Source of the DNA: Candidatus Pelagibacterales bacterium
GTDB lineage: Bacteria; Pseudomonadota; Alphaproteobacteria; Pelagibacterales; Pelagibacteraceae
Direction: 5' to 3'
NCBI GenBank assembly: GCA_965235415.1
Contig: CBDDXD010000002.1
Coordinates: forward strand, 93,596-157,595
Length of the DNA: 64,000 nt
Both the position numbers and the translations under genes were made by a program. The notes under the pieces were generated by a model. It did no database searches. It saw only the letters and a list, made by a program, of their open reading frames with translations, and had not been told where the DNA came from. Positions 27,936 through 43,335 of this stretch are shown here, one piece after another; the stretch's first letter is position 1; the number at the start of each line of letters is the position of its first letter.

Positions 27936-28802
27936 ATGATTGGAAATAAATTTAAAGGGCTAGGAAAAGGATTGTCAGCATTAATGGGGGATATTCCTCC
28001 AGAAAATATTCAAACTAAAAGTTCTTCAGAAAAAATTCCTATACATTTTATATATGCCAATCCTTCTCAACCAAGAAAAAATTTTAATCAACAATTACTT
28101 AATGAGCTTTCTGAATCAATTAAAGAGCAAGGAATTATTCAGCCAATATTAGTTAGAAAAAAATCAGAGGATAAATATGAAATTGTTGCTGGAGAAAGAA
28201 GATGGAGAGCAGCTCAACTTGCAAAAATTCATGAAGTACCAGTTATTGTTTTAAATATTGATGATAAAAAATCTTTAGAATTTGCAATATTAGAAAATAT
28301 TCAAAGGTCAGATTTAAACGGAATAGAAGAGGCTTTGGGTTATGATAATTTAGTTAGAAAATTTGCATATTCTCAAGAAACATTATCAAAAATTTTGGGA
28401 AAAAGCAGAAGTCATATTGCTAATACGTTAAGACTTGTTGGTCTGCCTGAAGAGATAAAAAAAATGATATCAGATGGATTATTAACAGCTGGACATGCTA
28501 GATGTTTAGTTAATGTTCCGGATAATATTAGACTTGCTAAAATAATAGTTAATAAAAATCTTTCAGTAAGGCAGGCTGAATTTTTAGTTAAAAAAGAGCA
28601 AGTTTTTTCAAGTTCTAAAAAAAATACAACAAATAATAAAGATACAAATATAAAATCTTTAGAAAGTGATCTTGAACTTTTAATGGGAATAAAAGTAGAT
28701 ATTAAGAATAAAAAAAATAATTCTGGAGAGATTAAATTTTCTTATAAAAATCTTGAACAGTTAAATAAAATTATTAGTGTTCTTAAAGGTTATTTTAGAT
28801 AG
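27936..28802 (+). CDS. parB: Chromosome partitioning protein ParB
   Basis: GLGKGLSAL, NPSQPRK, GIIQPILVR, IVAGERRWRAA, ENIQRSDL, GKSRSHIANTLRL. Confidence 0.98.
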   Translation: MIGNKFKGLGKGLSALMGDIPPENIQTKSSSEKIPIHFIYANPSQPRKNFNQQLLNELSESIKEQGIIQPILVRKKSEDKYEIVAGERRWRAAQLAKIHEVPVIVLNIDDKKSLEFAILENIQRSDLNGIEEALGYDNLVRKFAYSQETLSKILGKSRSHIANTLRLVGLPEEIKKMISDGLLTAGHARCLVNVPDNIRLAKIIVNKNLSVRQAEFLVKKEQVFSSSKKNTTNNKDTNIKSLESDLELLMGIKVDIKNKKNNSGEIKFSYKNLEQLNKIISVLKGYFR

Positions 28803-29786
28803 GTTTTGAGTTAAAAAATAATAAAATTGAGTATCTTGATTTAAATCATTTCTCTTAAACTCAGTCTCAACAATATTCAAATTACTTAAGAAATTTTTCA
28901 AGATTATTAGTGCTCCAAATTTTTAATATATTTTTTATTCTATCTTTATCTTTCCAGAAAATAGGAGGTTTATATCTTTCAATTCTTTCATCGATTGAAA
29001 GATGTTTTATTATTTTTTTGTATATCAAGAATTTTAATTATGAATGATCTTAGAATAATAATTATTTCTATAAAATTTTTTTCATAATTAGACATATTGG
29101 ATATAAATTCATTAATATTTTTTTCATTTTTAGATAGTAAAATATCAATAATTTCATCATTCTTTTTTAGATCTGCATCAGTACAAATTTCTTCAATAAT
29201 TTGATCTGTTATTTTTCCTGAATTTTTATATAGATTTAATTTTTCAATTACTTCTTTAATTTTTGATCTTTTTAAGGAAGAAGAATTAATAATAGTTTCA
29301 CTTTGTGAATCTGATAATTGAATATTATTTATTTAGAGTTGTTGTGTGAAGAAATTTTTTTATATCAAATTTAGTTTCTTGATAGCAGGGGATACAAATA
29401 GCTAATTTATCATATTCTCCAAATTGTCTTAGTTTCGAATTTTTTAGAAGTATTTCAGAGTTTAAAATAATAATATTATCATTAATATTATTTTTTATTT
29501 TATTAATAATTTCTAGTATTTTTTCAGAACAGTTTTTAATGATTGAAATATTTTTATTATCATCAAATAATGATCCATTAAGATAATAATTAATAATATT
29601 TTCTGGATTCTTAATTATATCTTCTTCAAAAAAAGATTTTGAGATTTTATTTTCTTCTATAAATTTAGATACAATTTGTTGATTTAAATCATTAACTAAA
29701 TCTTGATTTTCTCCATATAAAAGAATTATTTTTTCTTTAAAAAAATCTTTTTTTTTAAGACTTATCTCTTGTGATTTTAAGAGCAT
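28761..29786 (-). CDS. holA: DNA polymerase III delta subunit (frameshifted, first break near 29330)
   Basis: MLLKSQE, ILLYGEN, GSLFD, KNSKLR, IPCYQE. Downstream frames give IKEVIEKLNLYK and ...FYYFLTQNLSK. Follows leuS-lptE. Confidence 0.8.
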
Positions 29787-29791
29787 TTAAA

Positions 29792-30256
29792 CTAATTTAA
29801 TGAGACTCTAGATTTAAATAAGATATTTTGAATTATAGAATCTAATAATAATCTTTTTTCATTATTTTTTACTAAAATATTATTTGATAAATTGTCAGTT
29901 ACAGAAACTCTTTTGTCTTTGGTTATAGCATCTTGGTAGATGACAACTCCATTTTTATCTTGAAATTGATAGCTTACTGTTAATTTTATAATTTCTTCTG
30001 TAGAAATTCCTCTTGAATCAACAAGAGAACTTTCTGCTGTGTCATAAATTTGAGCTTTAAATATATAAGCATTTAAATTTTTTTCATCTTTTTTAAAATT
30101 TAATTTTTGTTCTAAATTAAAAGCTAGATCTTTATCACCAATAATTTCTGATTTAGAAATAATTACTTGTTTAGAGTTTCCAGTATAAATAGGTGAAAAA
30201 CCACAATGAGTTAAAGTAATTGATATTATAATAGCTAGAAAAAATTTATTTATCAT
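29792..30256 (-). CDS. lptE: LPS assembly lipoprotein LptE-like
   Basis: Lipobox LTHC followed by GFSPIY; lies between leuS and holA. Likely start is the ATG at 30256. Confidence 0.75.
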   Translation of the reverse strand: MINKFFLAIIISITLTHCGFSPIYTGNSKQVIISKSEIIGDKDLAFNLEQKLNFKKDEKNLNAYIFKAQIYDTAESSLVDSRGISTEEIIKLTVSYQFQDKNGVVIYQDAITKDKRVSVTDNLSNNILVKNNEKRLLLDSIIQNILFKSRVSLN

Positions 30257-32784
30257 TAGTAACAATATTAAGTAGTTTATTTTTTATAAAAATTTTTTTT
30301 ATTATATTTTTTTCTTCTAATATAACTTTAATATTTTTAATTGCTAAGGATTTGCTAAAAATATTTTCCTCACTTTCATTGTTAATAGCGTTGATAATTG
30401 CTCTTTTTTTACCATTTATTTGAATTACAATATCAAAATTATCTTTTTTTATAAGAGTATTTTCAATTTTAGGCCACTCTTGTGAACTTAGATTATTTTC
30501 TTTTGTAATTTTTTCCCAGCATTCGTTTGCGATGTAATGGAATAAAAGCAGATATAATAATTAAATATTTTTTATAAGCATTGATAATATCTTCTTCATT
30601 TAAAGTTTTTTTATCAATTTCTTCATTAAGATTATTTAAAAAAACATAAAGTTTAGCAACAGCTACATTAATATGAAATTTTTCTATACATTCTGTAATT
30701 TCTTTTATTAGAATATTTGTTTTAATTAAAAAACTATTATTATTTTCTTCTTTTTCTTTTTTATAAATTTTAATTTTTTCACAAACACGCCAAATTTTTT
30801 GTATATATTTAAATGCACCTTGGATACCGCTATCACTCCATTGAATATCTCGATCTGGAGGACTATCTGATAAAATAAACCATCTTACAGCATCTGCATC
30901 CATAAATTTTAATAATATCATCAGGATCAACAATATTTTTTTTAGACTTAGACATAGCTTGACTATCTCCTTTTAAAACTTTTTCTTTATTATCTAAAAA
31001 ATAAGATCCATCTTTTTCAATAACTTCTTTTGGAAAAACCCATTTTCCTTTTTCTGTTTTAAAGGTTGGATGACATACCATTCCTTGAGTAAAAAGATTT
31101 TCAAAAGGTTCAGAAACTTTTAATTTAAATTCATCTTGTAAGTGCTAAAGTAAAAAATCTTGAATATAAAAGATGAAGTATGGCATGCTCAACACCGCCA
31201 ATATATTGATCTACTGGCATCCAATAATTAGCTTCATCTATATTAAAAGGTTTTTCATTTTCTTTTGGTGAGCAGAAGCGAAGAAAATACCAAGAAGAAT
31301 CTACAAATGTATCAAGAGTATCAGTTTCACGAATAGCTTTCATTCCAGTTTCTGGACATTTTGTATATTTCCATGTGGGATGATTTTCTAATGGATTTCC
31401 TGGTTTGCTAAAATCTATATCTTTAGGCAGTTCTACAGGTAGATCTTTTTCTGGAACTAAAATAACCTTTCCATCTTCTCTATACATAATTGGAATTGGA
31501 CATCCCCAATATCTTTGTCTTGATATTCCCCAATCTTTAAGACGATAAATTATTTTAGAATTTCCTATTTTTTTTTCTTCTATTTTTTTAATAATATTTT
31601 TTTTTGCATCTTCAATACTTAAATCATTAAGAAAATCTGAATTAATAATATAACCATCCTCTGTATATGCCTGATCATTAATTATAATAGATTTAGACTT
31701 TATCAGGACTTACAACGGGAATTATTTCTAGATTATATTTTTTTGCAAATTCTAAATCTCTTTGATCATGTGCTGGACAACCAAATATAGCTCCAGTTCC
31801 ATAATCCATAAGTATAAAATTAGCTACATAAATTGGTATTTTTTTATTTAAAAAAGGATGTAATGCAAAAAATGGAGTTTTAAAACCTAATTTTTCATTT
31901 TTAGATAAAGATGATTCTGTGCCAATATTTTTTAAAGCAAGTTTTTTAAAATTTTGAAAATTTTTTTCATTTTTAAAATATTCAGTAAAAGGATGATCTG
32001 GAGCAATAGCAATAAATGAAGCTCCAAATATTGTATCTGGTCGTGTTGTAAAAATTTTAATTTTAGTATTTTTAAAATCTGAAATAAAATCAATTTCGCA
32101 ACCTATCAGATTTTCCAATCCAGTTTTTTTGCATTAACCTTACTTTTTCTGGCCAACCTTTTAAATTATCAAGAGATTTTAATAATTGATCTGAATATTT
32201 TGTAATATTTAAGAACCATTGATTTAATTCTTTTTTTTCAACAACTGCTCCAGATCTCCAACCTTTGCCATCAATCACTTGTTCATTTGCAAGAACTGTA
32301 TTGTCGATAGGATCCCAATTTACATAACTTTTTTTTTTATAAGCAATTCCTTTTTTAAAAAGAAAAGAAAATAAAATTTGTTGATGTTTATAATATGTAG
32401 CATCGCAAGTAGAAATTTCTTTATCCCAATCAATAGATAAGACCTAAGTCGTTTTAATTGCGATTTCATTGTTGAAATATTTTTTAATGTCCAATCTTTA
32501 GGATGTAGATTATTTTGTATAGCAGCATTTTCTGCAGGCAAACCAAAAGCATCCCAACCCATAGGATGCAAAACATTATAACCATTTAATCTTTTAAAAT
32601 TAGCTATAACATCACCAAGAGTATAATTTCTAACATGACCCATATGAATATTTCCTGATGGATAAGGAAACATTTCTAAACAATAAAATTTTTTATTTTT
32701 ATTTTTTTTAGTTTTAAAAATTTTATTTTTTTCAAAAAAATATTGCCATTTTTCTTCAATTGGAAGAGGATTGTAATTTTCCAT
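30246..32784 (-). CDS. leuS: Leucine--tRNA ligase (split by at least 6 frameshifts)
   Basis: Fragments in order: [101 protein letters not shown]. Confidence 0.97.
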
Positions 32785-32791
32785 TTTAAAA

Positions 32792-33365
32792 TTAAGTGCT
32801 ATTTTTGTTATCTTTTTTTGATTCTTCTATTTTTATTAGTCTTGCAGTTGAGATAATATGATTCTTTTATTTCATTAGTAAAATTATTATCTAATTTTTC
32901 AATTATAACATTTATCTAGATTATCACAAATTTTTTTATGAGCTAATAACTTTAATAGAATCTGATCTTAATTCATTACTTAAAAATCTTACTGAAATTT
33001 TTATTTGTTCATTTGATTTTCACCTTTGTCTGAATACCAATCATAAATTATTATCCCACCAGAATAATCAGCATTAACAAGAGGTAAAAAATCTAAACTT
33101 TTTAAGAGTTGCTCTCCATAAAACATTTGAAGTTGAAAATTCAAAAGTTTGTTCCGAGTATTTTTTTTACTAATATCTCCAAAAATACCACCACCTTTAT
33201 CTGCAAATTCTCTTGCTTTTTTTATCAGGATCAGGTTCTATAAGTAACTTTTTCACCAGTTATAGGGTCTGTTTTTGCAGCAATGATTTAATAGAATCAA
33301 TAAAATCAAATAAAAATAAAGAACATAAATTTATTAAAATGATTATATTTGAAAAATATTATATA
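32792..33365 (-). CDS. DUF3576-like protein (heavily frameshifted; start approximate)
   Basis: Manual translation across frames: [70 protein letters not shown]. Confidence 0.75.
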
Positions 33366-33542
33366 AAATATAGATATATTTAACTAAATATACTGTTGTA
33401 AAAATACAACACATATATTAATTAATTATTGCAATAATTCGATATTTATAAACAATAAATATAGTTAAATAATATAATTATCAAGTGTTAATTAAATAAT
33501 TATATTAATTAACTAAATTAATAACTAACAAAAAGGTAAAAA

Positions 33543-34663
33543 ATGAAAAAACTACTGTTAACAACTGCTCTTGCAGGTGCTTTAGTTAGCGTACATGCTG
33601 CATTTGCTCAAACAACAATAACTGGTGAGTCTAAGCTTGAACTTATCAAAGCTTAGCAAATTCTGCTACAGCTGGACACTAATGAACAGCTTACAAGGTT
33701 TTGGTAGCAGAACAGCAAATCAACGTTCAAACTAAAGGTAAATTAAATATTGGTGGCTTAGATTATGCTGCTGGATTTCGCTATAGAGAATGATGGTGAA
33801 TCAAACTGCTACTCTATTCAATGAAAACACTTACATGGACTTCACAAATGCAAGTTCAGGTACTACAATTTACTATTGGTAGAGACCACATTCAGAGATC
33901 AGACTCAGATAGATCAGCTACAGTACTTAGTTGGATTTGCTACCAAACGAGTTACTCTAGCTGATAGACGCTACAACAGCGTAACTACGTTTCAGCCAAA
34001 ACATTGGACCTGCAGTTGACAAGCTTATGGTAGTAGCATTATTACAAAAAACTCCAATTGGAACATTCTCATATAGTTCATATGCTCCAACAGCGGTGTT
34101 GACTGCAGCTGCTGTATGCATCTGGAGTTAACTGCAGCAAACACAAGGTTCAGAATCTAACAGCTGAATCGTGATGAACGAATCTGCTTATGAATATGGT
34201 TTCGCAGGTGATTTAGGTGTTAAAGGTTTGAATGCTTATTACTTCAAATCAGCAAATAAAAATCTTCAGGACGTGGTTAACAGACTAGTAGATGCAGAAG
34301 CTAATCAACTATGGTGTTAGCTACAACTTTGGTGCAATTCACAGTTGGTTAGCTGACAAGAAGATAACTATACAAACTCGCTGGAACAGCTTAACTGTTG
34401 AACTAATGACATACAGAAACAGCATATGGTGTTGCTTATGCAGTAAATAAAGAATCTATCTATTGGTGCTATTTATGCAAAAGCTGAATTAGCTACAGGA
34501 ACTATCAACAGCTGACTCAAAAAATTAAAGCAATTCAACGTTGGTTATAACTTAGGACCAGTATGCTTTAACAGTTGGTTATGCATAAAACTGAAGATGT
34601 CAGGTGGCACAGCTGGTGCTGATAAGAGTCATAGTTATGGTCAGATTACTTGGAGCGTTTTAA
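33543..34663 (+). CDS. Major outer-membrane porin (many indels; not in ORF track)
   Basis: Signal peptide MKKLLLTTALAGALVSVHAAFAQTTITG; fragments EQQINVQTKGKLN, ESAYEYGFAGDLGVKGLNAYYFK, YGVAYAVNK; ends VMVRLLGAF* with C-terminal Phe. Visibly higher GC than the flanks; followed by a strong terminator. Confidence 0.85.
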
Positions 34664-34693
34664 TTTAATTAATTATATAATTATTAATTAAAT

Positions 34694-34729
34694 AAGCCCG
34701 CTTACTAGAAATAGTAAGCGGGCTTTTTT
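34694..34729 (+). terminator. Intrinsic terminator after porin
   Basis: 14-bp perfect stem AAGCCCGCTTACTA-GAAA-TAGTAAGCGGGCTT followed by a T run. Confidence 0.92.
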
Positions 34730-34746
34730 ATTTGTAATTTATCTAT

Positions 34747-35293
34747 TTATATCCAAGATTTAACACCTACAGACATTGCTTTTGTTAAATTTATTTTTTT
34801 AATATTTGTTTAATTAATACCTCCTAAAGCACAAATGTTAGTTTTCCAATTTATAGAAATTAAATTAAATTTAATAGGATTTAATATTTTATTTTGTGAA
34901 TATTTATTGTTATAAAAAATCGGTGATAACATAATTGTTTTGCAGTTTTGTTTATTTTTTGATAAAGTATTCAAATTGATTATGAGCAGATCCTATTAAT
35001 ATTAAATTTTATTTTTTAAATAAATATTAATTAATTTTTTATTATTTACTAGATAAAAATATACCATGAGCTTTATAATTTATTGCAATTTATAATTATC
35101 GTTAAAATATAAAAAGGAATTCTGATTTTTTTTGCAAAATTTATTAATATATTATGCAAGTTTTAAGTATTTGTTTATTAATTGTAATATTTAAATATTA
35201 GATAAGTTCTTATATATTTTAAGTATATTTTTTATTATTATTTCATTTAAATTCATCAATAAAGATATAATATTTATAATTTAATGTATTCAT
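34747..35293 (-). CDS. Thiamine phosphate synthase (TMP-TENI)-like protein, frameshifted
   Basis: C-terminal fragment ...ICALGGIN..IKKINLTKAMSVGVKSWI* and MLSPIF motif; ends approximate. Confidence 0.55.
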
Positions 35294-35937
35294 GTAATAT
35301 ATCTATATAATTATAAAAATAATTAAAGAAAGAAATCAAATATTACTAAATAAATACAAATTTAATTAGTTGTAACTAAAAATCAAACTTTTGATAAAAT
35401 TAAATCTATTAATTAAATATGGTCATTATGATTTTGGAGAAAATAAAGTGCAAGAAGCTAAAGAAAAATGGTCAGATATTTATAAATAGTAATAAAAATA
35501 TAAAACTTCATTTAATTGGTAAACTTACAATCTAATAAAGCTAAAGATGCTTTTGCATTATTTAATTTTATTCACTCCTTAGATAATGAAAAATTAGCTA
35601 ATAAATTTTCTGAATTTGAAAAAAATTTCTAAAAAAAGTTAAATATTTTATTCAAGTTAATATTGGTAATGAAGATCAAAAAAATGGAATTAATGATGTC
35701 ATCTATTAGATGATTTTGTTAATTTTTGTAAAAATGATTTAAATTTAAATATTATAGGATTAATGTGCATTCCTCCAATTAATTTAGATCCTGAGATCAT
35801 TTTTTAAAAAAATGAAATATCTTAATGTTGAAAATAATCTTAACAGAACTTAGTATGGGAATGTCATCATGATTATAAAGATAGCAATAAATTGTGGATC
35901 TACTTTTGTAAGAATTGGTTCTGCTATATTTAAATAG
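35292..35937 (+). CDS. yggS: PLP homeostasis protein YggS/PLPBP (frameshifted)
   Basis: Fragments VVTKNQ, DFGENKVQEAKEKW, LHLIGKLQSNK, FIHSLD, QVNIGNEDQK.GI, GLMCIPP, LSMGMS, GSTFVRIGSAIF. Confidence 0.9.
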
Positions 35938-35944
35938 ATATTAA

Positions 35945-36442
35945 TTAGCCAATTTTGATTTTAGTATTTTTTTTAATTATTAGATAATAATTTTAATAAA
36001 TCATTTTTTTTTAAAGCAATACATCCTTTAGTTTTTTTATAATTTTTTTTTGCTATATGTAATAAATATAGCGCTACCTTTATTTTTTATATGTGGGATT
36101 TATATTATAATTTAATAACTACATATTATATCGTAAATATTGTCTTTTCGATATAATTTTTCATGACTAAATTTATTAGGTAATTTTATTTGTTTATTAT
36201 AATAATCACTTTTAGGATCATCACACCATCCCATATTTTTTTTAATTTTAATTTTTTTTAATTTGAGTTTTAATTTTTTTAATTCTATCTGTTCTGTAGT
36301 AAATTTTTATTATTTTAAATGTTCCTTTAGGAGTTATATTGTCACCTTCTTTTATTTTTTTTTTAATACCAGCTTTTCCTAAAGCACAACGAAATTTAAA
36401 ATTTTTATATTTTAAATATCCAGATTTTTTTACAATAATCAT
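35945..36442 (-). CDS. L,D-transpeptidase (YkuD-like) family protein, frameshifted
   Basis: FRCALGKAGI..KEGDNITPKGTF, GWCDDP, LYRKDNIYD, KGSAIFIHIA..YKKTKGCIAL (H...C catalytic motif). Confidence 0.82.
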
Positions 36443-36466
36443 ATTAAATGTATTATATATTTATTT

Positions 36467-37103
36467 ATGAATAATATTCATCTTCATATTATTGGATCAA
36501 AATCTTTTTATTAATTTATTAAATGAATTAGATCTTAATTATAATATTAGTTCTGATAATAAATCTAAAATATAATAATAAAGATTTATTAGTTAGAATT
36601 ATTTTTGCTGAAAAATTACAATTAATTGAAATTAAAAAATATTTTATTAGAAAATATTCCAACTATTTTTTTATTAAATAATAAAGATTTTTTAATAAAA
36701 AATAAATTAAATTTATTAGAATTTCATGTATCTTTATTTATTCCTATTGAAATTTTATCTTTTAAAGAAATATTAAATATTTTAATTACAAAATATAATT
36801 TTTTTAAAAAATCTAAAATTATTATTAATGATTATGAAATAGATTCTAATCAAAGAGTTATTATGAAAAATAGTATTAAAGTTAAACTTACAGAAAAAGA
36901 ATTAGAATTAATTTTAATCTTAAATAAAAATAATGGCTTAAATAAATCTTTTTTATTAAAAAATATATGGAATCATAGTTCAGATTTAGAAAGCACATGC
37001 TTTTGAAACTCATTTACATAGATTAAGAAAAAAAATAAATAAATTTTTTAAAGATAAAAAATTTATTATAGAAAAAAATTCTTTATATTATTTATCTAAA
37101 TAA
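36467..37103 (+). CDS. OmpR/PhoB-type winged-helix transcription regulator (frameshifted)
   Basis: KLTEKELELI, LLKNIWNH, then shifted ETHLHRLRKKI. The N-terminal region lacks recognisable receiver motifs. Confidence 0.78.
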
Positions 37104-37111
37104 TTATTAAT

Positions 37112-38064
37112 TTATTCTAATCTTGCTCCAATTTTTTGAATTATTTTTGAAGCAAGTATTGATCCAGTTATTAGACATTTTTTAATATCAGATTTTTCTA
37201 AATATTCTTTTAAAAATCCTGCAGCAAATAAATCTCCAGCACCAGTTAAATCTAATATTTTATCAACTTTTATACTTTCACAATTTATAATTTCATTATT
37301 TTTAATAGCTACACTTCCATTTTCACTTCTTGTTATAACTATTAATTTATTAAATTTTTTTAATTGATTTATAGAATCTAATAAATTTTTTTTATTTGTT
37401 AATTCATTTATTTCATTTTCATTTCCTATTAATATATCTAAATCATTTTTAAGTAAGTTTATAAAAATCTTCTTTATGTCTAGTTACACAAAAAATATCA
37501 GACAAACTCATTGCAATTTTTATTTTATTTTTTTTTGCTATATTTATTACATGTTTAAACATTTTTTCACTTATTCCTTTATCCCAAAGATATCCTTCTA
37601 AAAAAATTAATTCATGATTCTATAATATTATTTTCATTTATATCGTTATCTGAAAGATGTGATGATATTCCAAGATAAGTACACATAGTTCTTTCTGAGT
37701 CAGGAGTAATTAAAATGATAGATGCGCCTGTAGATAAATTTTCATTTTTTTCAATGTAAGAAAAATTTACATTTATATCTTCTAAGACTTTTTTTATATA
37801 ATTTCTCCAAAATTATCAGAATTAATTTTTCCAATAAAAGATGGATTTCCTTTAAGATAAGCAATTCCAGCCATAGTATTTGCAACAGAACCTCCTGCTA
37901 CAATTTTTTCAATTTTAATATTTTTTTTAAGATCTTCAAATTCAGATTTATTAATCAGTTTCATAGAGCCTTTAATAAGATTATTTTTTTATTAAAAATT
38001 CATCATCTACTTTTGCAAGTACATCAACAATTGCATTTCCTATTCCTAATATTTTTTTATTCAT
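37112..38064 (-). CDS. PfkB family carbohydrate/adenosine kinase (frameshifted)
   Basis: MNKKILGIGNAIVD, VAGGSVANTMAGIA, TPDSERTMCTYLG, DLTGAGDLFAAGF, GARLE*. Confidence 0.88.
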
Positions 38065-38695
38065 TTTTTTCTTTGTATAGACAAATTTTATTAATTACAC
38101 ATTTTTTACATAATGGATTTCTAGATTTACAGGTATATCTTCCATGCAAAAGTATTAAATGATGAGCTTTTTTTATATGTTTTTTAGGTAATATTTTTAA
38201 AAGTTGATTTTCAACTTGTTCAGGATTTTTACCATTAGAAAGACCAGTTCTATTACTAACTCTAAAAACATGAGTATCTACAGCAATAGTTGGTTTATTA
38301 AATGCAGCATTTAAAACTACATTAGCTGTTTTTCTACCAACTCCAGGAAGAAGTATTAATTCTTCAAATTTATTTGGAACTTTACTTTGATATTTTTCTA
38401 ATAAAATTTTAGATAAATAATATAAATTTTTAGCTTTATTATTAAATAGTCCTATACTTTTAATAAGATTTCTTATTTTATTTATTCCAAGATCTACAAA
38501 ATGTTTAGGAGTATAATATTTTTTATATATATTTTTAGTAACATTATTTACATTAACATCAGTGCATTGCGCTGAAAGAACAACAGAAGTTAATAGAGTA
38601 AATTTATTTCTATATTTTAAAGATGTTTTTGGATTTTTTATTGATTTATTTAATAATTTAATAAGTTCTAAAGCTTTATTTTTATTTAAAAGCAT
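38057..38695 (-). CDS. nth: Endonuclease III
   Basis: VVLSAQCTD, HhH LPGVGRKTANVVL, VDTHVFRV, C-x6-C-x2-C-x5-C cluster motif. Confidence 0.98.
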   Translation of the reverse strand: MLLNKNKALELIKLLNKSIKNPKTSLKYRNKFTLLTSVVLSAQCTDVNVNNVTKNIYKKYYTPKHFVDLGINKIRNLIKSIGLFNNKAKNLYYLSKILLEKYQSKVPNKFEELILLPGVGRKTANVVLNAAFNKPTIAVDTHVFRVSNRTGLSNGKNPEQVENQLLKILPKKHIKKAHHLILLHGRYTCKSRNPLCKKCVINKICLYKEKNE

Positions 38696-38721
38696 TAAAA
38701 TAATTTAAAAAATTTAATAAT

Positions 38722-39496
38722 TTATTTTAGACTAAACATATCTTGCATATTAAATAAGCCTTTATTTTTTTTACTTATCCATATAGCAGCATTTAATGCT
38801 CCATCAGCAAAAAGTTCTCTTGAAAAAGCAGTATGTTTTAATTCTATATTTTCTATTTTATTATTAAAAAGTACTGAATGTTTGCCAATAGTATTTCCTT
38901 TTCTTGTAATAAAAAAATTAATTTTATTTTTTTGCAAATTACCTTTTTTATTTAAAAACATTTTTCCTTTTATTGATTCTAAGTTTTTATTTTTACCTTT
39001 AGATACTGCATTTGCTAACATTAATGCTGTTCCTGATGGATAATCAATTTTTTTTTTGTGATGATTATCATTAATTCCAATATGATAATCATTAGGAATT
39101 TTTTTTGATAGAATATTAACAATATATTCTAAGAAGATTAATACCTAAACTCATATTACCTGATTTAAATATAGCAATTTTTTTTGAGTAATTTTTAATT
39201 AAATTATTTTGTTTTTTAGTAAAACCTGTTGTTCCAATTACAATTTTTTTTTTTAATTTTTTTGCATAATTTAAAATTTCAAGGGAAGCTTTGGGTCTTG
39301 AAAAATCAATAATAACATCAGTTTTTTTAAAAGCTTCTAAGTTATTTTTTTGTATCTTAATTCCACTTATAGTTTTTCCAGATTTTAAATCTGTTAAGCT
39401 AAATAATTTTAGATTTTTATTTTTTGATATTCTTTTAATTAGAATTTTTCCCATTCTTCCAAGAGCACCAGAGATTGTAATATTAATTTTTTTCAT
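38722..39496 (-). CDS. dapB: 4-hydroxy-tetrahydrodipicolinate reductase, copy 1 (full length; frameshift near 39130)
   Basis: ISGALGRMG, VIIDFS, VIGTTG, SGNMSLGINLL, HHKKKIDYPSGTA, HTAFSRELFADGA...MQDMFSLK*. Confidence 0.93.
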
Positions 39497-39586
39497 TAAT
39501 TACCACTCCAAAACTTTTTAGCTTTATTTATAAAATTTTTTATTTCTGAATTGTTATTTAAATCTTCTAAAGATTTAAATTTTTCG
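38746..39586 (+). repeat. 841-bp direct repeat, copy A (dnaJ last about 30 codons + dapB)
   Basis: Aligns by eye to 41443-42283 with 12 substitutions and 2 single-base indels. Confidence 0.97.
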
Positions 39587-41360
39587 TATAAAGTTGAGAA
39601 TTAAATAATGTTGAATTGCCTTTCTCTATTGAAAGCCTTTGTTTGATTTCTAATATTTTTCTATTATCATTTGAAAGTTTGACAGCTAAATCTTCATATT
39701 CTTTTTCTGAATAAGTTATTAATTCCCTCATGTTCATGGAGCTTAATAAACTTGCCGAAACTCTAGAAGCAAAGCTTTCTCCGGCAAGAGTTAATAAAGG
39801 AGTTCCAGCCCACAAAACATCGTTCGCAGTAGTATGTGCACTACATGGAAATGTATCTAGAAATAAGTCAGCAAGTTTATATCTATTTAAATTTTCTCCA
39901 ATATTAACCCTTTTAGTAAAAATTATTCTTTTGGGATTTATGTTTTTATTTGTGGCTTCAGATTTTAGATTATTTAATGGCTTGAGTATTGTCTGATAGT
40001 AACCATAAGACACTATTAGTGTTTCTTTTTTAAAATATTCATCCATGTATTAAAAATATATGGATTGATTTTTATTATATTATTAAAGCAACAAAAAATA
40101 AATTTGTTCTCTGGTAAATTGTAATCTTTTTTAAATAAATTATTTACAATACTTTCTCGCTTTTGGTCACTTACTTGATAGCTATTAGGTAAATAAATTA
40201 TTTTTTCCGAATAAAATTTTATGACTCTGATTAGGTATTAAAATCTTATCAGCTATTATATAATTTACGTAGTTAGTCCCCATAGTATTAGGAAAAGCTA
40301 AATAATTAATTTGTATTGGTGCTGCGTTTAATGCAAAAATGTTAGGCCTGCAATTTTTTATAAAACCATTTACATCGATAGCTATATCAAGATTTATTTT
40401 GTTACAAAACCTAGCTACCTTGTGATCGGAAATTGAAGAAATGTTATAGAATTTTGTTGCAGCATTTTTTATTCTATTTAACTTACCGTCAATTTTATTA
40501 CCAAAATAGAATATAAATAAATCAAATTTAGTTTTGTCGTGATATTCAAATAACTCAGGTATTAAATATCCAGTAGGATGAGAGTTGTTAAAATCACTTG
40601 AAAAGTACCCAATCTTAATTTTATTATTAGTGTGAGTACTTTTTGTTGGAGCATTAATCTTTGGAAAATTTTTAGTTGAGTAATCTTTAATGACTGTGCT
40701 TTGTATTTCTAAAGAATCAAATAAAAATACAATATCTAGCGGTTTAGAAACTTGTTTTTTTTTTATATTATTTCTAATAAATGTTGAATGTGGAAAATTA
40801 TTTTCATTTACAGCTAGACTTGTAAAAATTAATTTATTCTCATAATAGGTAGGGATAGTCAGGTTTTAATTTTAAAAGCTGATTATAGAATATAACGCAT
40901 CATCGTATTTTTTTGAAATTTCAAGTAATTCAGCCAGATTATAATAGGCATCATAAAAATTCTTATCAAATAATATTGCTTTATTATAACAATCTAAAGC
41001 TAAGTTAAAATTAGATGTAATTTTATATATTTGAGCTAAATTAAAAAATCCAATAGCATAATTTTCTTTTAATTCAATTGCATTTTTATAAAACTTAATT
41101 GCTTGATCGTACTTTTTTAATTCTTTAAATATAAATCCGAGGTTGTTGTAAGCAGAAAAATTTTTCGGATTAATTGAGATTGAATCTTTTATTAATTTAA
41201 TTGATTCAAAATATTTTTTTTTTGAGAAAAAAATAATTCCTAAAAGATTTTTCGCCTGAAAATTTTTTGGTTCATTTTTAATAATTTTTTGATAAATATT
41301 CTCTGCTTTTTCTAAAAAACCATCTTTATGAAATTTAATAGCCTCCTCTAACAAATCCAT
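39567..41360 (-). CDS. TPR-repeat + SPINDLY/O-GlcNAc transferase-like glycosyltransferase (GT41), frameshifted
   Basis: About 4-5 N-terminal TPRs (AYNNLG, AYYNLA). Manual translation gives KIGYFSSDFNNSHPTG, DIAIDVNG, APIQINYLAFPNTMG, FCCFNNIIKINP, DLFLDTFPCSAHTTANDVLWAGTP, GESFASRVSASLL. Confidence 0.88.
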
Positions 41361-41387
41361 TTTAAAAGTTCATAAAATTTTAAATTT

Positions 41388-41442
41388 TTATCCGCTCCAA
41401 AATTTTTTAGCTTTATTAATAAAATTTTTAATTTCTGAATTA
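41388..41442 (-). pseudogene. Orphan diverged dnaJ 3' tail (17 codons + stop)
   Basis: AAT TCA GAA ATT AAA AAT TTT ATT AAT AAA GCT AAA AAA TTT TGG AGC GGA TAA = [17 protein letters not shown], matching the DnaJ C-terminus with 5 synonymous differences. Confidence 0.9.
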
Positions 41443-42193
41443 CATATTAAATAAGCCTTTATTTTTTTTACTTATCCATATAGCAGCATTTAATGCTCCA
41501 TCAGCAAAGAGTTCTCTTGAAAAAGCAGTATGTTTTAATTCTATATTTTCTATTTTATTATTAAAAAGTACTGAATGTTTGCCAATAGTATTTCCTTTTC
41601 TTGTAATAAAAAAATTAATTTTATTTTTTTGCAAATTACCTTTTTTATTTAAAAACATTTTTCCTTTTATTGATTCTAAGTTTTTATTTTTACCTTTAGA
41701 TACTGCATTTGCTAACATTAATGCTGTTCCTGATGGGTAATCAATTTTTTTTTTATGATGATTATCATTAATTCCAATATGATAATCATTAGGAATTTTT
41801 TTTGATAGAATATTAACAATATATTCAAGAAGATTAATACCTAGACTCATATTGCCTGATTTAAATATAGCAATTTTTTTTGAGTAATTTTTAATTAAAT
41901 TATTTTGTTTTTTAGTAAAACCTGTTGTTCCGATTACAACTTTTTTTTTTAATTTTTTTGCGTAATTTAAAATTTCAAGGGAAGCCTTTAGGTCTTGAAA
42001 AATCAATAATAACATCAGTTTTTTTAAAAGCTTCTAAGTTATTTTTTTGTGTCTTAATTCCATTTATAGTTTTTCCAGATTTTAGATCTGTTAAGCTAAA
42101 TAATTTTAGATTTTTATTTTTTGATATTCTTTTAATTAGAATTTTTCCCATTCTTCCAAGAGCACCAGAGATTGTAATATTAATTTTTTTCAT
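41440..42193 (-). CDS. dapB: 4-hydroxy-tetrahydrodipicolinate reductase, copy 2 (lacks last 7 aa; frameshift near 41985)
   Basis: Same motifs as copy 1; ends GLFNM* where it is joined to the orphan dnaJ tail. Confidence 0.9.
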
Positions 42194-42283
42194 TAATTAC
42201 CACTCCAAAACTTTTTAGCTTTATTTATAAAATTTTTTATTTCTGAATTGTTATTTAAATCTTCTAAAGATTTAAATTTTTCG
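41443..42283 (+). repeat. 841-bp direct repeat, copy B
   Basis: Partner of 38746-39586; offset 2697 bp. Confidence 0.97.
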
Positions 42284-43335
42284 AGCAAGTCCTTTTGTTC
42301 TTTTGACAAGGATTCAGGAATTATTACATTTGTTTCTAGATATAAATCTCCATAATCATCACTTCTTATAATAGGCATGCCTTTGCCTTTTAGCCTAAAT
42401 TGTTTACCAGATTGTGTTCCAGCTGGAATTTTAATCTTTGATTTTCCACCATCAATTGTTGGAACCTCTATTTCGGCACCAAGCGCTGCATCAGTCATTG
42501 ATATTGGTAATTTATAATATAAATTTTCTTCAGATCTTTGAAAAATTTTATGTTTTTCAAGGGTTATAAATACATAAAGATCTCCATTAGATCCTCCTCT
42601 ATAACCAGCATCTCCTTTTCCAGATAATCTTATTTGTGTTCCATCATCAACTCCTTTTGGAATTTGAATGGATAGATTTTTTTTTGTCTTAATAGCCCCA
42701 GATCCTCTACAATCTTTGCAAGGGTTAGAAAGCACTTCACCTTCTCCCCCGCAATCAGGACAAGTTTGTTGTAGAGTAAAAAAACCTTGCTGTGTTCTTA
42801 CTTTTCCATGACCATTACAAGTAGAACATTTCTTTGGTTTTGAACCAGGTTCTGCACCATCACCAGAACATTTTTGACACTTTTCGTTTGAAGATAAATT
42901 GATAGTTTGTTTTTTTCCAAAGTAAGCTTCTTCTAAAGTTACTTCTAAATTAATTTTTAAATCAGATCCTCGATTAGATCTTGATTTTTTAGAACCTCTG
43001 CCACTTCTTCCCGATCCCATAAAGTCGCCAAAAAAATCATCAAAGATGTCAGAGAATGCGCCAGACTCAAAACCACCAAAATCAAAACCTCCAGCCCCAC
43101 CAGCCCCACCTTCAAATGCAGAATGTCCAAATTGATCATAGGAAGATTTTTTCTTTGGGTCAGATAAGACTTGATAAGCCTCAGATGCTTCTTTAAATTT
43201 AGCTTCAGCAGTTTTATCTCCCTGATTTCTGTCAGGGTGGTATTTCATTGCAAGGGATCGATAAGCTTTTTTTATTTCCTCAGGAGTTGCTTTTTTGGTT
43301 ACACCAAGAATATCATAATAGTCTTTTTTGGACAT
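42193..43335 (-). CDS. dnaJ: Chaperone DnaJ
   Basis: J-domain HPD, G/F region, four CxxCxGxG repeats, GDLYV. Confidence 0.99.

Follow-up and report, generated by a model that had tools for sequence, protein, structure and literature searches.

Gene order and repeat structure downstream of dnaJ

The DNA analyzed here, referred to as the window, is a stretch of 64,000 nt (C2:93596-157595) from contig C2 of a Candidatus Pelagibacterales bacterium genome (GCA_965235415.1; 1.16 Mb in 7 contigs, ~29% GC, 95.5% completeness, 3.2% contamination). On its minus strand lies a dnaK-dnaJ-dapB-nth region in which the last 90 nt of dnaJ together with dapB occur twice, as 841-bp direct copies at 38746-39586 (copy A) and 41443-42283 (copy B), on either side of 1856 bp of DNA holding a third dnaJ tail and a gene for a TPR glycosyltransferase of the GT41 family. 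The coordinates and the gene order of the original prediction, which had been made from the sequence alone, were reproduced by a repeat search (find_repeats), by MAFFT alignment and by analysis of the open reading frames (ORFs). Copies A and B have a start-to-start spacing of 2697/2696 and differ by 12 transitions and 2 single-base indels (~98% identical); they are the sole direct repeat of at least 60 nt in the window, and their similarity is far beyond chance. The third dnaJ-tail copy (80 nt, 41373-41452) is 79% identical. The features are as follows.

45281-43368, minus strand: dnaK
42193-43335, minus strand: dnaJ, an intact ORF of 380 aa, the last 90 nt of which (42194-42283) are the upstream end of copy B
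41443-42283, minus strand: repeat copy B, i.e. dnaJ tail and dapB copy B (42193-41440), from the repeat alignment, ORFs and Pfam
41435-41450, minus strand: junction J1, dapB end to foreign dnaJ tail, from alignment with the parental layouts and copy A
39587-41442, minus strand: segment S2, 1856 bp, from Pfam (TPR and PF13844) and alignment to locus L054
39574-39590, minus strand: junction J2, GT41 gene to resident dnaJ tail, from alignments with the parental sequences
38746-39586, minus strand: repeat copy A, i.e. dnaJ-tail remnant and full-length dapB copy A (39496-38722), from the repeat alignment, ORFs and Pfam
38057-38695, minus strand: nth (endonuclease III), intact, 212 aa, Pfam HhH-GPD, syntenic in all relatives
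28850-42000, no strand: low-quality patch, from indels of lengths not divisible by three in syntenic core genes

The dnaJ remnant of copy A (29 codons, 90 nt, 39497-39586) is 100% identical to the tail of the real dnaJ, and the dapB that follows it is of full length with one frameshift near 39131, where the sequence CTTCT[T][A]GAA holds both alleles of a polymorphic site. The dapB of copy B ends in GLFNM*, 7 codons short, and has one frameshift near 41985 (AAA[G]GCT), at an A/G site that is polymorphic in the population. In segment S2, 17 codons from the end of a foreign dnaJ are followed by a spacer of 27 nt and then by the TPR-GT41 gene (41360-39567). Since each dapB copy and the GT41 gene are frameshifted, no gene within the repeat structure is intact as deposited.

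The expectation that the unit would lack a transposase, an integrase and a tRNA was borne out by the ORFs, Pfam and ARAGORN. The only ORFs of at least 60 aa in 38.0-43.4 kb are nth, pieces of dapB, pieces of the TPR/GT41 gene and dnaJ; the Pfam families in the unit are HhH-GPD, DapB_N/C, TPR and Glyco_transf_41 only, with no transposase, integrase or recombinase among them. ARAGORN found no tRNA or tmRNA gene in 28-46 kb, and no inverted repeats bracketing the unit were found. A mobile element or an island with an integrase or tRNA was thus rejected, there being neither such genes nor a tRNA target nor terminal inverted repeats. The exact DnaJ protein is present on six other public contigs, and dnaJ is 89-96% identical in genomes of the same genus; exact-protein look-ups with the TPR piece, the GT41 C-terminal piece, nth and the gene at 27936-28802 found no record.

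A three-part mosaic of co-occurring lineages

The three parts of the structure differ in their closest relatives. S2 is 97.3% identical to L054, a public contig of a lineage that bears GT41, noise included, and is essentially identical to it outside a 63-nt patch, a cluster of changes in the upstream dnaJ tail and spacer, and isolated single-base indels. The same L054 is only 93% identical to the window flanks in dnaJ, ~86% in dapB and 85-92% over the rest of the patch, i.e. 85-93% overall, which upholds the proposed foreign origin of the GT41 segment. The dnaJ side matches a different molecule: locus L065, from the sibling metagenome-assembled genome (MAG) GCA_965235275.1, encodes an identical DnaJ and is 98.85% identical to window positions 49334-41440 (7.9 kb). 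This match ends exactly at the end of copy B, from where L065 runs from dapB straight into nth.

The two dapB copies are 1.4% apart, at 9 synonymous and 3 conservative sites. Because each variant is common to other members of the population, the copies are two natural alleles rather than a fresh duplicate; had the duplication been fresh, the copies would be identical, and had it been old, S2 would have diverged. On these alignments, the segments trace to two or three co-occurring strains or lineages.

The GT41 gene of S2, which is the only GT41 gene of the genome, is degraded in the window, with 5 frameshifts, a garbled stretch of 63 nt and the loss of its last 23 codons, such that it ends ...YTKNL-NL*. 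TPR repeats and a complete PF13844 domain do not occur in one open frame; Pfam recovers pieces of PF13844 (69-212, 358-394 and 412-543) plus TPRs. The protein obtained by reading through the frameshifts is 95% identical to P0001, an intact form of 618 aa; a search of the species genomes with P0001 gave just one kind of match, an unrelated one in Flavobacteriales. The garbled stretch (40779-40842) is unlike any GT41 allele and stands in place of 65 nt encoding the conserved GTIVNLKLQICDWANFDDSLKE (the CDWANFDD region); an origin by local inversion or by copying from elsewhere was rejected, as no source was found in the genome or in the loci compared. The isolated indels in the gene lie outside polymorphic sites and resemble ordinary long-read errors at thin coverage. 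The full-length homologues checked (P0001, P0013 and P0015) keep the tail ...ELAYLEIWNNFRKGL.PKN.Y.E, and the ending ...YTKNLNL is absent among the best 120 GT41 homologues.

The two joints

At J1, dapB, 7 codons before its stop (...TTTAATATG / ...GGCTTATTTAATATG), passes into the foreign dnaJ tail, 17 codons before its stop (TAATTCAG / TAATTCAGAAATT...). In alignments with the parental layouts L054, L055, L060 and L061 and with copy A, the parents of this joint share only an imperfect T.TAATA (5-7 nt). At J2, the GT41 gene (...CAACTTTATAC) passes into the resident dnaJ (GAAAAATTTAAATC...), 29 codons before its stop, and the parents (the L054 GT41 gene and dnaJ) share C[A/G]AAAAATTTA, i.e. 9 perfect bases plus 1. 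The acceptor points all fall within 36 nt in the dnaJ tail, where the homology common to both parental layouts ends. The joints fit template switching or illegitimate recombination, and not ligation chimeras.

Neither joint was found elsewhere. The J1 31-mer GGCTTATTTAATATGTAATTCAGAAATTAAA and the J2 34-mer CAACTTTATACGAAAAATTTAAATCTTTAGAAGA gave no matches in 241 million JGI metagenome records, and the J1 31-mer gave none in 185,579 species genomes; this absence is weak evidence, as the JGI and species collections omit some ENA/Logan assemblies. Traversal of a simple two-haplotype bubble as the sole cause of the structure was rejected because neither haplotype links a dapB end to a dnaJ tail. 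When the two parental layouts are aligned locally under permissive settings, the alignment starts 15-30 nt from J2, making it plausible that J2 is a join at an alignment endpoint; nothing comparable explains J1.

Natural layouts at the dnaJ-dapB boundary

The original prediction had suggested surveying the dnaJ-dapB interval of relatives for variable inserts, and the interval is indeed either empty or filled by a GT41 gene. Among same-genus genomes with a readable dnaJ flank, 11 have dnaJ and dapB abutting, followed by nth wherever the sequence reaches (direct dnaJ-dapB was seen in G009, G019, G012, G001, G010, G008, G002, G015, G014 and G011, and in most other genera of the order too). Five others (G003, G013, G016, G018 and G020) have dnaJ-TPR/GT41-dapB-nth, and in G005 a GT41 gene directly follows dnaJ, the contig being too short to reach dapB. 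A second dapB is present in none of the same-genus genomes read. At this position, the GT41 genes (L044-L048 and L054-L063) fall into at least four classes, with protein identities of 36-42%, and are without mobile-element features. These comparisons indicate that the dnaJ-dapB boundary is a one-gene hypervariable GT41 islet in the genus, vacant in most species and occupied by divergent alleles in the rest, a conclusion that we regard as solid and that holds however the duplication in the window arose.

Public contigs give the same picture. Those encoding the closest GT41 proteins (P0001, P0002 and P0005; 11 contigs, 8 of them read for P0001 alone) come from ENA, JGI and Logan samples and, where long enough, read dnaJ'-26 nt-GT41-27 nt-dapB'-nth-pfkB..., with no duplication. 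Five short-read contigs and the sibling MAG, all with the identical DnaJ, carry no insert: L067 reads dnaJ-dapB (257 aa)-nth, and L066, L068, L069 and L070, from other samples, all stop 60-190 nt into dapB. At the dnaJ stop, conserved sequence thus gives way sharply to sequence of high microdiversity in this population, which explains why the transition from clean to noisy sequence in the window sits here.

A low-quality patch in a composite genome bin

From ~28.85 to ~42.0 kb of the window (13 kb), core genes that are syntenic with those of relatives are broken by indels of lengths not divisible by three, at 1-13 per kb for the most part but at 26-41 per kb between 33 and 36 kb, where no ORF exceeds 56 aa; GC drops to 0.15-0.16 at 35-37 kb. 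The edges of the patch are sharp (~28.8 kb and ~42.0-42.2 kb), with more than 20 kb on either side free of such errors, and the duplication lies wholly within it, at its right-hand end. Genetic code 4 (TGA=W) was rejected as a cause of the broken ORFs, since these are broken by frameshifts and table 11 reads the flanks cleanly. In the sibling MAG L065, the same genes are noisy as well, the noise setting in exactly at dapB.

The frameshifts in the two dapB copies are informative as to how this noise may have arisen. Elsewhere, the alleles are CTT or CTA at the copy A site and AAAGCT or AAGGCT at the copy B site, and an error of this type, CC[C][A]TC, also occurs in the dapB genes of L065 and of genome G009. 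Such merged-allele frameshifts, present in both dapB copies, are the mark of a consensus made over reads from mixed strains.

The genome bin is demonstrably a composite of more than one strain. Contigs C5 and C6 share 85-87% identity across some 39 kb; C1:1-5335 matches C3:182576-187909 in reverse complement (99.1% identity; 43 mismatches, 5 indels); and pieces of C7 match C1 and C2 at 86-87%, the C7/C5 pieces shared with C1/C2 being 85-100% identical overall. The size of the genome, its GC content (28-30%) and its gene order point to a SAR11-like alphaproteobacterium. MutS domain V (PF00488) was not detected in this 95.5%-complete genome; a control search found the domain in 11 of 14 reference genomes.

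A second tandem duplication is present on the same contig, at C2:253320-261591 (L071:4321-12592), where two 4134-bp copies that differ by 3 single-nucleotide polymorphisms and 1 indel are separated by 5 nt (ATACG). The region is single-copy in every relative searched; its ORFs resemble, by eye, arsC and an aquaporin-type channel, and the duplication truncates a neighboring ORF, the two versions of which are 201 and 251 aa long.

Origin of the duplication

Directly observed are the mosaic of three parts, both parental layouts, a consensus of low quality with mixed-strain errors, and the composite bin. We consider that these are probably best explained if the duplication is a chimeric read or an assembly artefact and not the chromosome of one cell; the joints, we infer, arose in vitro or in silico. 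Two natural layouts occur in the population, type (a), dnaJ-dapB-nth, and type (b), dnaJ'-GT41-dapB'-nth. Along the contig, type (a) sequence runs through dnaJ and dapB until 7 codons before the dapB stop; type (b) sequence takes over 17 codons before the dnaJ' stop and lasts through GT41 until 23 codons before the stop of that gene; type (a) sequence then resumes 29 codons ahead of the dnaJ stop and extends across dapB into nth. Such a composite of haplotypes may have entered the contig through a chimeric long read, or through a faulty join where support was thin and strains were mixed; possible routes are template switching by a polymerase at short matches during amplification and a join made by an assembler or gap-filler.

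An artefact needs one chimeric molecule or one faulty join, in a sample that holds all three lineages, and it fits the low-quality consensus, the composite bin, the second duplication on the contig, the absence of the hybrid elsewhere and the truncated, garbled GT41 gene. The chief alternative, that a type (a) cell very recently took up a type (b) GT41 segment by two illegitimate joints at short matches beside the dnaJ homology, is possible, though we find it decidedly less probable. It could have come about by two successive events of homology-facilitated illegitimate recombination (HFIR) anchored in dnaK-dnaJ, the first adding dnaJ'-GT41 (J2) and the second dnaJ-dapB (J1), or by one HFIR event followed by the formation and RecA-mediated integration of a 2697-bp circle (dnaJ' tail-GT41-dnaJ tail-dapB); either route leaves the 841-bp direct repeat, which RecA could later resolve to dnaJ-dapB. 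Several observations speak for this alternative. The matches at J2 (9-10 nt) and J1 (5-7 nt, imperfect) are of the kind expected of real illegitimate recombination and lie in the range of 3-10 bp given for HFIR in the summary of PMC6382021; the recipient-side breakpoints fall within 36 nt in the dnaJ tail, beside a homologous anchor, which is where HFIR would place them; S2 clearly differs in origin from its flanks; the dnaJ-dapB boundary is a natural hotspot of GT41 gain and loss; and the genome is without a detected MutS, the absence of which, according to the same summary, raises both recombination between diverged DNA and HFIR in other bacteria. Given the match range and rate of HFIR and the lack of MutS, real recombination is not implausible, and it explains why the breakpoints cluster next to the anchor. 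Moreover, J1 is not made by standard overlap or graph traversal, so an artefact must stem from a chimeric molecule or from an error during extension or filling; ligation-type nanopore chimeras would not yield a three-piece local mosaic; and chimeras from multiple displacement amplification (MDA) are mostly inverted (>85%, PMC1855051), whereas both joints here are direct. The consensus error in copy B lies 545 nt from J1, inside the noisy patch, so that J1 does not simply mark the change from clean to noisy sequence and both copies may have stood on the same read or reads, i.e. in the same long-read-derived stretch. The allele difference between the dapB copies is weak evidence either way, as polishing with mixed-strain reads could sort alleles onto two draft copies.

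Other points weigh against real recombination. It needs at least two rare illegitimate events and DNA from three lineages (one type (b) and two type (a) strains), all within a very short time, since the dapB copies are 1.4% apart and S2 is near-identical to its donor. No second instance turned up in the public contigs or genomes searched, the GT41 gene has lost 23 conserved C-terminal codons that are present in all homologues checked, the extra dapB copy is without evident benefit, and at this point the assembly is poor in quality and demonstrably a mixture. A third explanation, that J2 alone is real, we consider very unlikely: one HFIR event would have given a haplotype dnaJ-GT41 (truncated)-dnaJ tail remnant-dapB-nth, with J1 and copy B deriving from a joined type (a) contig end. 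J2 does have the stronger match (9-10 nt), one dnaJ-anchored HFIR event gives exactly that product, the J1 match is weak and imperfect, and type (a) short-read contigs with this DnaJ end nearby; yet the J2 k-mer was not found in the JGI metagenome contigs, no GT41 protein with the ...YTKNLNL ending is among the best 120 homologues, and the long-read-type error in copy B, 545 nt from J1, places J1 off the seam between clean and noisy sequence.

As regards the original prediction, its caveat that the structure might be a strain-haplotype chimera has become the better supported explanation, given the three lineages, the intact parental layouts, a hybrid seen nowhere else and a frameshift-ridden, mixed bin. 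The capture at the dnaJ 3' end by homology-assisted illegitimate recombination that it favored gains from the short matches at both joints, although a chimera is better supported; and for a reversible accordion locus in a core heat-shock operon there is no support beyond the existence of the repeat itself.

Comparison with known systems

An artefactual origin has its nearest counterpart in strain-chimeric MAG misassemblies and chimeric reads, with which the locus shares the joining of segments from co-occurring lineages, merged-allele indels in a low-quality consensus, a bin with redundant contigs (85-87% and 99%) and a structure seen in no other assembly; it differs in that the usual graph or overlap errors do not make a joint such as J1 and in that both joints here have short matches.

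Flexible, replacement-type genomic islets that carry glycosyltransferases occur in marine SAR11-like bacteria. The dnaJ-dapB site resembles them in being a conserved core site that is either empty or TPR-GT41-filled, without an integrase, tRNA or repeats, and, as in such islets, it is empty in some relatives and holds divergent alleles in others. It differs from them in that a single gene is involved and not a multi-gene island; its native form lacks flanking repeats.

With respect to HFIR, as described by de Vries & Wackernagel (2002) and summarized in PMC6382021, matches of 3-10 bp are used, at 10^-2 to 10^-3 of the frequency of homologous transformation. On the basis of that summary, the likeness lies in foreign DNA beside a homologous anchor (dnaJ), in joints at short matches (C[A/G]AAAAATTTA at J2 and the imperfect T.TAATA at J1) and in a host in which no MutS was found. 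The foreign segment is, however, not continuous with the anchor on one side, the dnaJ' tail of S2 being joined to dapB (minus 7 codons); a single event of the kind summarized there would join a foreign dnaJ tail seamlessly to dnaJ, whereas here two events or a circle are needed. Natural transformation is, in addition, only hypothetical for this organism. MDA chimeras (Lasken & Stockwell 2007, PMC1855051) arise by priming at 2-21 nt of complementarity and are >85% inverted and intramolecular; they resemble the present structure in their short-match junctions and local rearrangements, and differ in that the joints here are direct and link different strains.

Implications

Were the structure real, which we rate as possible but less likely than not, a protein-glycosyltransferase gene would have been captured from another species-level lineage at the dnaJ stop of a MutS-less, SAR11-like cell by two short-match joints. 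RecA could then delete or amplify the 2.7-kb unit, always restoring dnaJ-dapB, and the locus would be an intermediate, caught in the act, in the gain or loss of a one-gene flexible islet without mobile-element machinery. It would also document that a streamlined genome free of mobile elements can acquire a gene for surface or protein glycosylation by illegitimate recombination, and would offer a testable route to reversible gene gain.

If the structure is an artefact, it is a warning that long-read MAGs of microdiverse plankton can carry local duplications that are biologically plausible, and that such duplications can show alleles seemingly under purifying selection, exactly where the haplotypes of a population differ in gene content. 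The population structure at the dnaJ-dapB boundary, i.e. a sharp boundary together with a GT41 islet, is in itself a solid, if mildly interesting, result.

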